A DNA stretch of 6,755 nt, taken from IMG/VR virus record IMGVR_UViG_2706794690_000012; one strand, given 5' to 3'. The position numbers and the translations under genes are program-made. The stretch's first letter is position 1. The number at the start of each line of letters is the position of its first letter. Source of the stretch: a virus. Taxonomy: Duplodnaviria; Heunggongvirae; Uroviricota; Caudoviricetes. Shown piece after piece: positions 1,710-6,755 of the stretch. The notes beneath the pieces are model-generated. The model searched no databases. It saw nothing but the letters and a program-made list of their open reading frames with translations, and was not told the origin of the DNA.

Positions 1710-2072
1710 GGGGCTGATTCTGGATTCGACGGGATTTGCGAAACCCAAGGTGCATGCCGAGGGGCGGTTGGCCTCGTAAAAAGCCGCAAAAAATAGTCGC
1801 AAACGACGAAAACTACGCTTTAGCAGCTTAATAACCTGCTTAGAGCCCTCTCTCCCTAGCCTCCGCTCTTAGGACGGGGATCAAGAGAGGTCAAACCCAA
1901 AAGAGATCGCGTGGAAGCCCTGCCTGGGGTTGAAGCGTTAAAACTTAATCAGGCTAGTTTGTTAGTGGCGTGTCCGTCCGCAGCTGGCAAGCGAATGTAA
2001 AGACTGACTAAGCATGTAGTACCGAGGATGTAGGAATTTCGGACGCGGGTTCAACTCCCGCCAGCTCCACCA
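1710..2072 (+). ncRNA. ssrA: tmRNA (SsrA, 10Sa RNA), complete 363-nt mature sequence ending in CCA
   Basis: Begins GGGGCTGATTCTGGATTCGACGGG (tRNA-like acceptor 5' half) and ends GGACGCGGGTTCAACTCCCGCCAGCTCCACCA (T-arm plus acceptor 3' half plus CCA). The internal tag frame is present. The sequence matches E. coli ssrA as I recall it. Confidence 0.95.
1799..1831 (+). other. tmRNA tag-peptide reading frame: GCA AAC GAC GAA AAC TAC GCT TTA GCA GCT TAA, encoding ANDENYALAA plus stop
   Basis: The exact canonical E. coli degradation tag codons, read directly inside ssrA. Confidence 0.9.
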
Positions 2073-2270: not shown

Positions 2271-2492
2271 TTACGTAACATCAAACGCTCTAATTGTTCC
2301 CAAATCCTCCAGACCACTCAGCTCCTCTTTCATTTCACGCTGACGGCGATAAATCTCATCGTTGCGATCGACCTGCGCCTGCACCATTGCTGCCGCCAGT
2401 TCTTCCAGTTCCGGCATCGACAGTTTCACCTGCTGATTATCGGCATCACCCCACGCCATATGCGTTTGTGCTGTGACAGATTTTGCCAGCAT
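2271..2492 (-). CDS. Hypothetical small protein (73 aa from the ATG; frame open upstream to 2525), predicted helical; possibly the C-terminal part of a frameshifted tail-fibre chaperone
   Basis: Codon usage is E. coli-like (ctg gaa gaa ctg gcg gca gca atg gtg cag...). It is the last ORF before the terminator in the tail-fibre operon. No clear RBS precedes the ATG at 2490-2492. It overlaps the preceding ORF in another frame. Confidence 0.4.
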   Translation of the reverse strand: MLAKSVTAQTHMAWGDADNQQVKLSMPELEELAAAMVQAQVDRNDEIYRRQREMKEELSGLEDLGTIRAFDVT

Positions 2493-2700
2493 GACTACCG
2501 GGGACAGGCGGCCCAGTGAGTCGGGCTATCTCACCCCATTTGCCACTTTGCAGTTCCTGCCAGATTCGCTGACCCGTCGGTGCGACATCATCAGCGGTGG
2601 CTGTGTAGGGGACTGCCTGGTCCCTGTCGTCAAAAAAAACGTCACAGTCTACTGCGCCACTTTCGGTATAACGGGGATTAATGATTTTTTTAATTTCCAC
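2446..2700 (-). CDS. Hypothetical protein (84 aa, GTG start) directly downstream of the Stf-like gene; possible N-terminal part of a tail-fibre assembly/chaperone protein
   Basis: An in-frame GTG at 2698-2700 is preceded by GAGGAA with a 6-nt spacer, directly after the Stf stop (TGA 2711-2713). The ORF-track ATG at 2758-2760 would overlap Stf by 50 nt. The product ends in a proline-rich stretch (LTGPPVPG) reminiscent of Tfa inter-domain linkers. Confidence 0.4.
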   Translation of the reverse strand: MEIKKIINPRYTESGAVDCDVFFDDRDQAVPYTATADDVAPTGQRIWQELQSGKWGEIARLTGPPVPGSHAGKICHSTNAYGVG

Positions 2701-2710
2701 GGTGCATTCC

Positions 2711-3979
2711 TCACGATGTGCGAATAAAAAGCCCGGGCATTGCGCCAGAGACATGAGCATCCGGCACCCCGGACAGGGCGCTATATGACCCCGGTAATGA
2801 ATGCTCTGAACATCCCGTAATGAAAAATTGTGGGGATGCTATATACGTTCCGGTGGGAGTACTGGGCACTGAAATCCCCACCGGTCCCAGTCGTGAGCCT
2901 CTGTATGACTGCCCCCTGACAAGTCTGATGACTTTATCACCGTCAGCTTCTCCCTGGTACGCAGCAATAATCAGCCCGCCAATGTCAGGGTCTCCCCATC
3001 TGTTGCAGACAGAGCTCGCCACGATTCTGTAAATAATATCTTCTGTGGTTATATTTATTTTCACCCAGCCAGTCAGTCTGGATATGGGCCAGTAGCAGTA
3101 GCGGGTGTGATAAATGGGGCCGTTAATGCCGTAAAAAGTAAGGGATTTGGCTCTGTACCTCGGTTCTGTTGTCTCAGGGCGTGCATCAGTCCACCGGATG
3201 CTGAGCACCCCTTCAAACCGTGTGTCGGGTATGATGATGTCGTAGGGGCCAGCAACGGAATATTCACCTGGCAGCGCATTCCTTACCCAGGCCAGGAAAT
3301 CACTCTTAGTGTCAAAACGGATAACATCTTCAGGCAGAAAAGCACACCCAAAGCCGAATGCGCCGGGTATCGCCAGACGGCCTTTTGTCCGGTCGTAAAT
3401 GTCGCTCTGTGCTTCCATCGTGGCCGCACTTTTCAGCCCCAGATTATCCCGGGACTTCTGTTGTGCCTTTTCGCCTGCTGCTGCGATTTCAGACAGATGG
3501 TTAGCCGTTTTCAGAGTGCCGGTCAGCGCAGCATCAATGTCATTTTTGGCCTGCTCTGCTGCGCGGGCATAACCTGCGGCTGCCGCCACATCCTGCGCCG
3601 TCTGCTGTGCGTTTCCGGCTGCGGCCCCGGCGCTCTGCTGCGCCTGCGCCACCATTTCCTCAAAGCGTTTGACGACATCCGGTTTCAGGTCGCCCTCATC
3701 AGGAGCAATCAGAAAGTCATTCAGCGTGCCGGGCTTTGAGTCGTCGTATACAGCAATGTCGCCAACACAGTACTCGTCGCGCCAGTCCCGTTTCAGATAC
3801 ACGCAATATTTTCCGACCTGTGCCTCAAACGAATATTCACCGTTATTTCCGGTCACTACATCAGCCCTGGTACGCATCACCACTTCTGAGGTGTTTACAC
3901 GGGATTTCAGAATAATCTGGCATCCGGACATGGGGATGCCTGCGCCATCAGTCAGCGCACCTGATATCACTACAGACAT
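2711..3979 (-). CDS. Side tail fibre protein, 422 aa, with a lambda Stf-like N-terminal domain, an Ala/Gln-rich shaft and an unrecognised C-terminal region
   Basis: The N-terminus MSVVISGALTDGAGIPMSGCQIILKSRVNTSEVV...VYDDSKPGTLNDFL parallels lambda Stf (MAVKISGVLKDGTGKPVQNCTIQLKARRNSTTVV...VYEDSQPGTLNDFL; recalled from memory). This is followed by an AAAGNAQQTAQDVAAAAGYARAAEQAK-type shaft. The last roughly 230 aa have no family I recognise. Confidence 0.85.
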   Translation of the reverse strand: MSVVISGALTDGAGIPMSGCQIILKSRVNTSEVVMRTRADVVTGNNGEYSFEAQVGKYCVYLKRDWRDEYCVGDIAVYDDSKPGTLNDFLIAPDEGDLKPDVVKRFEEMVAQAQQSAGAAAGNAQQTAQDVAAAAGYARAAEQAKNDIDAALTGTLKTANHLSEIAAAGEKAQQKSRDNLGLKSAATMEAQSDIYDRTKGRLAIPGAFGFGCAFLPEDVIRFDTKSDFLAWVRNALPGEYSVAGPYDIIIPDTRFEGVLSIRWTDARPETTEPRYRAKSLTFYGINGPIYHTRYCYWPISRLTGWVKINITTEDIIYRIVASSVCNRWGDPDIGGLIIAAYQGEADGDKVIRLVRGQSYRGSRLGPVGISVPSTPTGTYIASPQFFITGCSEHSLPGSYSALSGVPDAHVSGAMPGLFIRTS

Positions 3980-4002: not shown

Positions 4003-4548
4003 TCAGGAAGAACCTTCCGGAGAGACGGACCATTCAATGGCGTTATATGAGGATTTATCAGTGATGGTGCTGAAATCCATCGCCTGCAGCGATTTCGCGT
4101 AAATACGGTACGCTTTCAGTTTTTCCCGGTCTTCGTCGCTGATTAGCCCCAGCAGCAGGTCTTCTTCCCATTCCCCTGTCCGGGCACTGACCTGAGCCAG
4201 AAGGGCATCACGCTCATCTTCCGCTTTGAGTCTGTAGTCAAAGACAAATTCATCATTGCGGTAAAACCAGTAACCCGGCGCGGTAATGCGGCGGTTGGCG
4301 GTAATATCAGGAACTTCAATAACACTGGCGTTACGGGGTTCAATGCCTGTCACATCCTTACCGACCCACACCACGCGCCCGTCTCCGGTGTAAACCATTT
4401 TTATGGTGTCACTGGCAAAGTTCTTCTGTTCTTCATACCAGTTTTTGCCGTCTTCCGAAAAAAGCCAGGTGACATCATACTGTTTTGTCAGCTGATATTA
4501 TTCCGCGGTTTTCGGATTACCTGCCGTAATATTTTTTAAATGCAACAT
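4003..4548 (-). pseudogene. Tail-fibre assembly protein (Mu U / TfaE-like) interrupted by an in-frame ochre stop at codon 17; the ORF track shows only the distal 131-aa part (4003..4398)
   Basis: The ATG at 4546-4548 sits 2 nt after the upstream tail-fibre stop (TAA 4551-4553). It reads MLHLKNITAGNPKTAE, then TAA at 4498-4500, then continues in the same frame YQLTKQYDVTWLFSEDGKNWYEEQKNF...ITANRR...IEWSVSPE. The N-terminal signature matches Mu U / TfaE-type proteins (MHLKNI.AGN.KT..QY.LTK...DGKNWYEE) as I recall them. Confidence 0.6.
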
Positions 4549-4550
4549 TG

Positions 4551-5603
4551 TTAAATACTCGCTACGTTATACCAGGTGCCATTAATCAGTTTTTGCAGCG
4601 GTCGGTAATACACGCCGTTGACGTTATCCGCTGAGTTACGGCCGGTATCCGATATCGATATCCCTGACAGCCCGTGTCCCGAAGGTGAGCGAAATGTCCA
4701 CGAAACGGTGTTACTGCCGGGGGGGTAATACATTTCATAACCATACCGCACATCCTGCACGCCACCATTTCGCTGCTGGTAACGGGCATCAAAGTTTCCG
4801 TAGTCTGACGGTGTTACCCGTCCTGTAACGTTTACAGCTTTATTACTCTGGATACTGCCACTCTGAAAACGCAACACATGCACGCTATTGGCATAAACAT
4901 CCAGCAGGCCATCACCATTCTGTTTGAATCCGGTGTCATTATCACCAAGAACAATTGAATTCCCCCCCAGGGCGTTCTGAACGCCGATACCCAGCGCACC
5001 ATTGACCTGCGAACCACCGCCAACAGACACTTTATGCGACATGGATATTTCACCCGTCCGCAGATTAATGGTGAACGGGCGCAGGGGACCAATATCGCCA
5101 TTTTCCCCCTGACCTTCACTGGTGGGAATAAGGTGCAGGCACTCTTCCGAACGACGAAAAATCAGGCCAAAAGCTTCGTTGAAAATCCTCAGCGCATTAA
5201 CACCACGGATTTTCAGCTCTCCGGTCATGGTGTCGCCATCACGCTGAACGGCATTTTTTGCCTTATCCACCGTGGGTTTTAATCCGAGGTTTTCAACAGC
5301 CTCATCCCTGTCTTCCACATCCGAAAGGTTATTTTTTATCAGCAATGCCTCTTCGTTAATTGCACCGCCCACCAGCAATAATATAGCCTTATATAGCTGG
5401 TCGTGTTCTTCTTTATTCAGTTCTATCCCGGCCTTCTCAATGACACCACAGATTTCCTCCTGAATGGCATTCCACATGGCACTGTTCAGCCAGGTAGCAA
5501 GACGTCCTGTGCGAAGATTTCCGTCAGTAAATCCGTTCTTACCCGGACCAAACTTATCTTTTACCGCAGTCAGCGTATCAATCCTGTGCATCTTCATCCT
5601 CAT
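4551..5603 (-). CDS. Tail fibre protein (Mu S-like), 350 aa
   Basis: The N-terminal motif FTDGNLRTGRLATWLNSAMWNAIQEEICGVIEKAGIELN resembles the conserved N-terminal region of Mu S-type tail fibres. The C-terminal part is Gly/Asn/Ser-rich. It is followed 2 nt later by the Tfa start. Possible starts at 5603, 5597 or 5591 all overlap the upstream gene. Confidence 0.8.
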   Translation of the reverse strand: MRMKMHRIDTLTAVKDKFGPGKNGFTDGNLRTGRLATWLNSAMWNAIQEEICGVIEKAGIELNKEEHDQLYKAILLLVGGAINEEALLIKNNLSDVEDRDEAVENLGLKPTVDKAKNAVQRDGDTMTGELKIRGVNALRIFNEAFGLIFRRSEECLHLIPTSEGQGENGDIGPLRPFTINLRTGEISMSHKVSVGGGSQVNGALGIGVQNALGGNSIVLGDNDTGFKQNGDGLLDVYANSVHVLRFQSGSIQSNKAVNVTGRVTPSDYGNFDARYQQRNGGVQDVRYGYEMYYPPGSNTVSWTFRSPSGHGLSGISISDTGRNSADNVNGVYYRPLQKLINGTWYNVASI

Positions 5604-6168
5604 CTGGATAGGAAAATAAAACGACGGTGTGTGACGGACATAATTTATTAATCACGCACTCCGCAACCGTATCCCCCCACGTCCGGATCGGTGTGTTGCA
5701 GGCGTCCGTGCATGTCTGCCACTGAGCACCGGCATCCATCGGCAACGTCACACGCCAGAAATAACGCCAGCGATCTCCCCATTCCGGATCGGGGCTTGCA
5801 TCCAAGTGCTGGAACTGTTCGATCGTTACGCCGGTATATCCCAGCGCCTCAAGCTGATCCAGGAAGAACTGCTCATTTATGCCACCAGCCACATTGGCTT
5901 TTGCTTCAAGACGTTGCTGACGCTGGCGTAATGTCTGGGTTCCGACAGGGGAACAGGAATCAGGTAAACCATACAATTCTTCATAACGTTCAATCAGCTC
6001 TGTGGACTGACCGGGATCGATTTCAATCACCAGTTCATCAGCCCGCTGGTGAACACGCACAAGCGATGGTGCCAGACCGTCAAGTACACCGTCGGTATCT
6101 GACCATGCAGGCCCCGGCGGCATCAGTCCGTACAGCAGCTTTGTATAATCATCCTGTAACGAATCCAT
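5578..6168 (-). CDS. Phage tail protein, Mu gp48 / P2 gpI / YmfQ-like (DUF2313-type), 196 aa
   Basis: The N-terminus MDSLQDDYTKLLYGLMPPGPAWS and the C-terminal TWGDTVAECVINKLCPSHTVVLFSY follow the pattern of YmfQ/gp48-like tail proteins (from memory). It sits between the baseplate J-like and tail-fibre genes as in Mu and P2. Its ATG (6166-6168) overlaps the upstream stop in a TAATG arrangement. Confidence 0.75.
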   Translation of the reverse strand: MDSLQDDYTKLLYGLMPPGPAWSDTDGVLDGLAPSLVRVHQRADELVIEIDPGQSTELIERYEELYGLPDSCSPVGTQTLRQRQQRLEAKANVAGGINEQFFLDQLEALGYTGVTIEQFQHLDASPDPEWGDRWRYFWRVTLPMDAGAQWQTCTDACNTPIRTWGDTVAECVINKLCPSHTVVLFSYPDEDEDAQD

Positions 6169-6566
6169 TATTTACTCCTTGCCGGGTCATAAGCCTGCCA
6201 GGTGATCTCGCCGAGCACCGGAAGCTCGGTCTCCCCCAGGTCAATATCCGATGAAGGGACGATTAACCGGTGGGCCACTTCACCAGCAGACAAACTGATG
6301 GCCTCACTGATTCTGGACAGATACATACGCCCCTCTGGCACACCATCCCGTAACATCAGTGCATTCAGCTCTGCTTTTATTGCAGTCCTGATCTGCGGTG
6401 TGTCTTTCGATAATGCAATCGTCATCGGGATGACTTTTTCTGTGGCACCGAATACATACAATCCGCTTCCGGCAACAGGTGCCAGAGGAAGGATGTGGTC
6501 CCTGACTGCGTTAATCACGCTTTCATCCGGGGCCGGGCGTTCCGGATCGTTTGTCGCCACCATCAC
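6168..6566 (-). CDS. Baseplate J-like protein (Mu gp47 / P2 gpJ family), C-terminal portion; the frame stays open upstream to an in-frame TAA at 6681-6683 and again from there to the window edge
   Basis: The ORF-track product MVATNDPERPAPDESVINAVRDHILPLAPVAGSGLYVFGATEKVIPMTIAL... has the layout of baseplate J C-terminal halves. The in-frame upstream translation VGSITGGADPDYVIWAKEVQGINRAWTFRHWKGTGTVGV also looks coding. The gene is therefore probably truncated or disrupted rather than a true 132-aa protein. Confidence 0.6.
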   Translation of the reverse strand: MMVATNDPERPAPDESVINAVRDHILPLAPVAGSGLYVFGATEKVIPMTIALSKDTPQIRTAIKAELNALMLRDGVPEGRMYLSRISEAISLSAGEVAHRLIVPSSDIDLGETELPVLGEITWQAYDPARSK

Positions 6567-6755
6567 GCCAACCGTTCCAGTGCCTTTCCAGTGTCTGAAA
6601 GTCCATGCACGGTTAATACCCTGAACTTCTTTCGCCCAGATAACATAATCAGGGTCTGCGCCCCCGGTGATGCTGCCAACTTACTGATTTAGTGTATGAT
6701 GGTGTTTTTGAGGTGCTCCAGTGGCTTCTGTTTCTATCAGCTGTCCCTCCTGTTC

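Follow-up and report, generated by a model that had tools for sequence, protein, structure and literature searches.

Introduction

The bacteria within reach of a phage, or of a particle derived from one, are determined by its fibre tips, and chimeric Stf fibres are already in use to retarget lambda particles (PMC11338833). Two of the described systems closest to the fibre considered here sit at different places on the virion. In lambda, the N-terminal domains of Stf assemble on the tube into a 12-mer collar directly above the tip (PMC12617516), and this collar binds both the tube and gpM (PMC12617516). In phage XM1, six trimers of gp40 bind the neck via a 100-residue N-terminal domain (PMC10457771). 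The fibres of phages V22 and A5 are built as shoulder, stem, neck, knob(s) and head, with pyocin-like knobs that are duplicated in the longer variants (PMC7289586, PMC10579305). Experimentally, the DUF4376 protein gp27 is required for functional fibre gp26 of Alteromonas phage V22 (PMC7289586); size exclusion separates this chaperone from the mature fibre, which binds cells on its own (PMC7289586). Transient caps have been proposed for Alteromonas phages (PMC10579305).

We analysed a stretch of 6,755 nt from a virus record, referred to below as the window. An earlier note, made from the sequence alone, had singled out one of its genes as a lambda Stf-like side tail fibre with an unrecognised C-terminal region.

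The fibre gene is an intact relic in a decayed prophage

The window runs through ratA/yfjF, smpB and ssrA into a prophage end that lies entirely on the minus strand, an arrangement of ssrA and prophage also seen in E. coli C311. The fibre gene, intact and with exactly the coordinates given in the earlier note, is the fifth of the following features:

1710-2072, plus strand: ssrA (tmRNA), the chromosomal site abutted by the prophage end (ARAGORN)
2271-2700, minus strand: DUF4376 fibre-chaperone gene, inactivated (PF14301 match on the 3' piece; tblastn)
4003-4548, minus strand: Tfa assembly gene of the lambda gpK/Tfa type for the upstream fibre (PF02413, 7.3e-21)
4551-5603, minus strand: first tail fibre, about 346-350 aa, baseplate-proximal (phrog_6859, 5.7e-209; weak match to a gp37 trimerisation region)
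2711-3979, minus strand: the fibre gene under study, 422 aa
5578-6168, minus strand: YmfQ / Mu gp48-like baseplate protein (PF10076, 2.3e-25)
6168-6566, minus strand: C-terminal fragment of a Mu gp47-like baseplate J, truncated upstream by IS1 (PF04865, 3e-08)

The genes are thus ordered baseplate J fragment, YmfQ/gp48, fibre 1 (phrog_6859), Tfa, target fibre and DUF4376, in the context of a Mu-type baseplate cluster (gp45, gp46, gp47, gp48). This order is common to E. coli prophages, at ssrA and elsewhere, and to phages phiP27, Rac-SA53 and pPE4. The tail-fibre region of the last of these (vB_Apl-pPE4, deposited as an Actinobacillus phage, locus L006) is close at the protein level to those of E. 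coli phiP27 and Rac-SA53; one would not expect this of a phage from Pasteurellaceae, and a mix-up of hosts or assemblies may lie behind it.

A great many Shigella-type genomes (723 index blocks) encode this 422-aa protein without any change, and homologues that are 100% identical over the C-terminal 232 aa carry the source name Shigella sonnei. Apart from one deletion in the DUF4376 gene, the window is 99.9-100% identical to these Shigella loci. Loci L009 and L013 carry this same fibre gene at another chromosomal site, where its neighbours are a phage integrase and yfdP-like genes in place of ssrA, and some Shigella genomes may carry more than one copy of the tail module. The ends of the window (about 6567-6755 and 1-97) appear to be insertion sequences, with IS1 in baseplate J and an IS4-family element beyond yfjF; because of them, megablast matches were obtained in all 5,426 E. 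coli genomes, at tens of thousands of places.

Three lesions were seen in the prophage. In 99.9% identical loci, IS1 genes separate the halves of baseplate J just beyond the window. The Tfa gene, otherwise 98% identical to a 181-aa homologue, has a premature stop at codon 17 (window 4498-4500), where intact homologues have Gln; in other loci with an identical fibre gene Tfa is called as 162 or 123 aa, below the intact 181. Finally, compared with the otherwise identical Shigella locus L012, a 122-bp internal deletion splits the DUF4376 gene into two ORFs, removing aa 86-123 of an intact 207-aa homologue and shifting the frame (tblastn). The 12-bp overlap at the deletion junction (window 2514-2525) suggests that the deletion arose by slippage between short direct repeats. 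Given the DUF4376 deletion, the Tfa stop and the IS1 in baseplate J, the prophage is a decayed remnant and the fibre gene an intact relic within it. The gene probably does nothing in the present genome, a Shigella-type chromosome with a dead prophage; since the prophage is dead, the fibre matters little for its present carrier.

A Stf-type N-terminus is followed by a stalk, a neck and two compact domains

The fibre can be divided into five parts, all on the minus strand:

3704-3979: Stf-type collar/attachment domain, an Ig-like beta domain, residues 1-92 (PF08400; 9e7m; 7kjk)
3455-3703: short Ala/Gln-rich stalk, residues 93-175 (PF08400 to residue 131; XM1 gp40 alignment to 198)
3347-3454: conserved neck motif before the knob, residues 176-211, the family's most conserved block (NLGLKSAATMEAQSDIYDRTxGRLAxPGAFGFG)
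3053-3346: knob domain D1, one helix and five strands, residues 212-309 (AlphaFold2)
2714-3052: terminal head domain D2, one helix and six strands, residues 310-422 (AlphaFold2), the presumed receptor-binding tip

Residues 1-131 correspond to PF08400, 'Prophage tail fibre N-terminal' (Pfam; 2.4e-63, 212.6 bits against a cut-off of 26.6). The lambda Stf collar domain (PDB 9e7m, residues 1-92) aligned to fibre residues 1-92 with an E-value of 4.6e-17, and a weaker alignment to residues 1-198 was obtained for the XM1 gp40 collar spike (PDB 7kjk; 1.1e-06). The stalk comes next, and the Stf-type N-terminus and Ala/Gln-rich shaft read by the earlier note are both borne out. By analogy with the description of lambda Stf (PMC12617516), from which its coiled-coil character is taken, the stalk (residues 93-175) is presumed to be a trimeric coiled coil. 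It is recombination-prone: indels of 5-45 aa or more separate relatives.

In the AlphaFold2 model, built from a 38-sequence alignment, the neck is disordered and the two compact domains follow it. Single chains were modelled, although the protein almost certainly forms trimers, and the low confidence of the neck in the monomer (pLDDT <50) is expected for a trimer-dependent segment. D2 modelled alone gave a pLDDT of 86 and a pTM of 0.77. An internal duplication giving D1 and D2 was ruled out, the hhalign probability being 1%. As had been noticed from the sequence, the C-terminal region lacks Gly-rich repeats and contains several cysteines, four in all (C213, C295, C325, C390).

The tip belongs to a narrow family of fibre modules

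The last ~245 aa matched nothing in Pfam, NCBIfam or the sequences of the PDB, the latter searched with both the single sequence and a profile. The C-terminal 232 aa did match phrog_2636, 'tail fiber protein', at 1.9e-97 (profile positions 330-567 of 568). To call the region unrecognised is therefore right for the former three resources and wrong for PHROGs: the phrog_2636 tip is an already known, though uncharacterised, fibre module, and it is the head D2 alone that is without structural or functional assignment. Our literature search found no experimental work, receptor or binding assays included, on phiP27 L56, the Avunavirus fibre or the phrog_2636 tip family.

Relatives of the tip found by tblastn share 30-35% identity over 99-100% of the query and lie at the C-termini of annotated tail fibres, among them phiP27 L56, Rac-SA53 tail3, Av-05 gp76 (Vequintavirinae), SerU-LTIIb and pPE4 gp69; the giant fibre of phage Goslar has an internal match to the first half of the tip alone. 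A profile search recovered 391 homologous proteins in Escherichia, Shigella, Salmonella and Yersinia, and among 1.84 billion cluster representatives screened exhaustively with an HMM, only 146 belonged to the family. Judged by these sequence searches, the family is real but narrow. Many of the E. coli homologues (e.g. P0071, P0075, P0087) are source-named 'shikimate transporter', which looks like a propagated misannotation.

HMMs for the separate domains gave the layout D1-D2 in 157 proteins, D1-D1-D2 in 18 and three copies of D1 followed by D2 in 2. D2 was always C-terminal, at times on otherwise unrelated fibres, and each copy of D1 follows the conserved neck motif QSDIYDRTxGRLAxPGAFGFG, which is seen repeated in Rac-SA53 tail3. 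That protein, of 1,061 aa (L003 1390-4575), has three knobs, each with its own neck motif, as well as repeated collar-like segments (SPALTGTPTxPTPPDDAxGxExAN), and looks like natural fibre lengthening by module repetition.

Profiles of D1, D2 and D1+D2 found nothing in the PDB beyond a chance-level match to an SH3 'ALYDY...KKGD'-like sequence (E 0.33). Foldseek against the PDB returned nothing below E 1e-3, the best hit being the C-terminal domains of phage K gp144 (E 0.015, TM 0.25). The structural neighbours listed were the phi812 receptor-binding proteins, phage K gp144, phi11 Gp45, T4 gp34 and the fibres of Pa193, R2 pyocin and Mu. The earlier note would have considered the region unremarkable had it matched an ordinary, well-characterised tip; such a match is moderate for the knob D1, and none is confident for the head D2. 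Since D2 has no significant structural neighbour in the PDB (Foldseek), its description as a receptor-binding head rests on position, variability and analogy.

The tip is exchanged between fibres

The earlier note had asked whether the C-terminal module recurs on other fibre N-termini, and it does. In Shigella, one tip (97-98% identical) is fused to three mutually strongly divergent PF08400 N-termini; the crossovers lie within the conserved FEEMVAQAQQSAGAAAGNAQQTAQDV segment of the stalk, and stalk length varies by 5-45 aa. In E. coli, the tip is also found behind PF12571 and PF03406 fibre N-termini. As far as sequence comparison can tell, this region is the distal, most variable and swappable part of the fibre, which supports a role in setting receptor specificity. 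Since the tip also recurs in other enterobacterial phages, the fibre is fairly ordinary.

A model for the fibre and the alternatives to it

We propose that the protein is a modular, trimeric fibre from a prophage that resembles phiP27 and has a contractile tail of Mu type. Its PF08400 domain would anchor it to the virion as part of a collar, and the short coiled-coil stalk and conserved neck would lead to one knob, D1, and then to the terminal head D2, the presumed receptor-binding tip. To fold and trimerise, the tip would rely on the DUF4376 protein encoded directly downstream, whose gene appears translationally coupled to that of the fibre. The tip itself would be a non-enzymatic adhesin module, exchanged among phages through recombination within conserved segments of the stalk and neck. 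To this explanation as a whole, a non-enzymatic receptor-binding fibre with a knob-head tip matured by a DUF4376 chaperone, we give a probability of roughly 0.7.

The pairing with DUF4376 is visible in the arrangement of the genes. The DUF4376 gene was directly downstream of the fibre gene in all six homologous loci checked, and in the window its likely start is a GTG at 2700, 10 nt past the fibre stop, with a GAGGA Shine-Dalgarno sequence that overlaps that stop.

The earlier note had suggested that the tip could be an enzyme, and one may imagine a depolymerase, esterase or deacetylase that degrades or modifies surface polysaccharide. Conservation computed over 53 sequences (non-redundant at 80% identity) gives a different picture: D1 and D2 contain no conserved His, Asp or Glu, and conservation falls on Gly, Pro, aromatic and hydrophobic residues together with D196/R197/T198 of the neck, K278, S362 and R420. 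Variable segments lie at 216-225, 266-275, 306-325, 366-395 and 406-415. Conserved residues of this kind, alternating with variable segments, imply a structural core with variable surface loops and not the pattern of an enzyme. None of the four cysteines is conserved among close or distant homologues, which rules out functional cysteines, whether for disulfides or for catalysis. Neither a family nor a PDB match to a catalytic domain (beta-helix or SGNH fold) was found, and the model of two alpha/beta domains of ~100 aa each shows no such features. With no match to a hydrolase family or structure, no conserved residues of catalytic type and structural neighbours that are non-enzymatic, we reject the enzymatic tip as highly improbable; an ordinary modular receptor-binding fibre is the most likely reading. 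Another alternative moves the adhesin elsewhere: D2 would be mainly a docking platform, and a retained DUF4376 protein would itself be the adhesin, or else a cap that can come off, as with Mu Tfa, gp38 of T2/S16 and the Alteromonas caps (a cap model is described in PMC10579305). The constant adjacency of the two genes fits this, as does the PHROGs label 'tail fiber protein' for DUF4376 proteins (phrog_1141). Moreover, the strongly conserved D2 motifs GGLxLAAY, PGSRL, PGxYxALSG and GLFxRIA could form a docking surface, and between the window type and phiP27 the chaperone is 66-78% identical, the tip only about 30%. A chaperone so much more conserved than the tip could dock on conserved motifs, stay bound and alter which protein touches the receptor. 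The same difference cuts the other way, however: a chaperone acting as adhesin should be hypervariable in place of D1/D2, and the opposite is seen. In V22, furthermore, the chaperone separates from the mature fibre, and the chaperone-free fibre binds cells (PMC7289586). We therefore consider a retained DUF4376 protein unlikely to be the part that meets the receptor, and prefer D2 as the putative receptor-binding head.

Where on the virion the fibre would sit is a separate question. By analogy with XM1 gp40, it could be a neck or collar fibre bound to the connector and tail terminator, and not a side fibre at the tail tip. The sole solved myophage homologue of its N-terminal domain is that of Vibrio phage XM1 (7kjk), which is neck-bound; the surfaces to which the lambda collar binds, the tube and gpM, are covered by the sheath in a myophage; and the prophage already has a separate baseplate fibre with a Tfa of its own. 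On the other hand, the fibre is closer in sequence to lambda Stf than to XM1 gp40 (4.6e-17 against 1.1e-06), and its gene closes the cluster of baseplate and fibre genes. The contractile tail of Mu type, the separate baseplate fibre and the neck binding in XM1 together make the neck or collar position a serious possibility, which we hold at a little under even odds. A bolder combination seems doubtful to us: D2, with its 113 residues, may be a receptor-binding fold without counterpart among solved structures, maybe a small SH3-like barrel, whose narrow family comprises some 150 clusters from enterobacterial phages and which is displayed on the neck collar, not the baseplate, of contractile-tailed phiP27-type phages. 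The head domain would extend the receptor-binding repertoire by a new structure. For practical purposes, a compact knob-head tip with a known type of cognate chaperone and clear natural fusion points could serve in the targeting of Shigella and E. coli.

Comparison with known systems

With lambda Stf (Ur-lambda, 9e7m) the fibre shares the collar domain of residues 1-92, the start of the stalk, PF08400 and a modular logic. Beyond this the two part ways: in lambda Stf a long proximal coiled coil and a hinge come before a T4 gp37-like distal region, which binds OmpC, and the chaperone is Tfa (PF02413), whereas the present fibre has a very short stalk, a knob and head tip and a DUF4376 chaperone, and belongs to a Mu-type contractile tail and not to a siphovirus. 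We found neither a distal region of lambda type, the match to 9e7m being limited to residues 1-92, nor a downstream Tfa; the PF02413 gene of the window lies upstream of the target fibre and belongs to the other one. XM1 gp40 (7kjk) likewise has a homologous N-terminal domain and stalk start, and comes from a contractile-tailed phage, but it is 839 aa long with an unrelated distal part, and attachment to the neck has been shown for XM1 only. The R2 pyocin fibre PA0620 (6cl6, 6cu2), T4 gp34 and Mu gpS gave low structural scores and no sequence similarity, and D2 matches none of their tips.

True homologues of the tip (30-35% over 232 aa) are found in phiP27 L56, Rac-SA53 tail3 and Av-05 gp76, where the order fibre 1, Tfa, fibre 2, DUF4376 is also kept. 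The N-termini of the phiP27 and Rac-SA53 fibres are about 90% identical to that of the present fibre; the fibres of all three phages differ from it in stalk length, in knob copy number and in their strongly diverged tip sequence. V22 gp26 and A5 gp8, with their chaperones gp27 and gp9, have the same architecture, the same duplication of knobs and a DUF4376 gene immediately downstream, yet there is no detectable similarity in fibre sequence and the N-terminal anchor is different. The V22/A5 head resembles the lectin-like head of AP22 gp53, which was not recovered for D2. The present fibre thus follows a V22-type logic, yet stands outside the V22 group by head fold and sequence.
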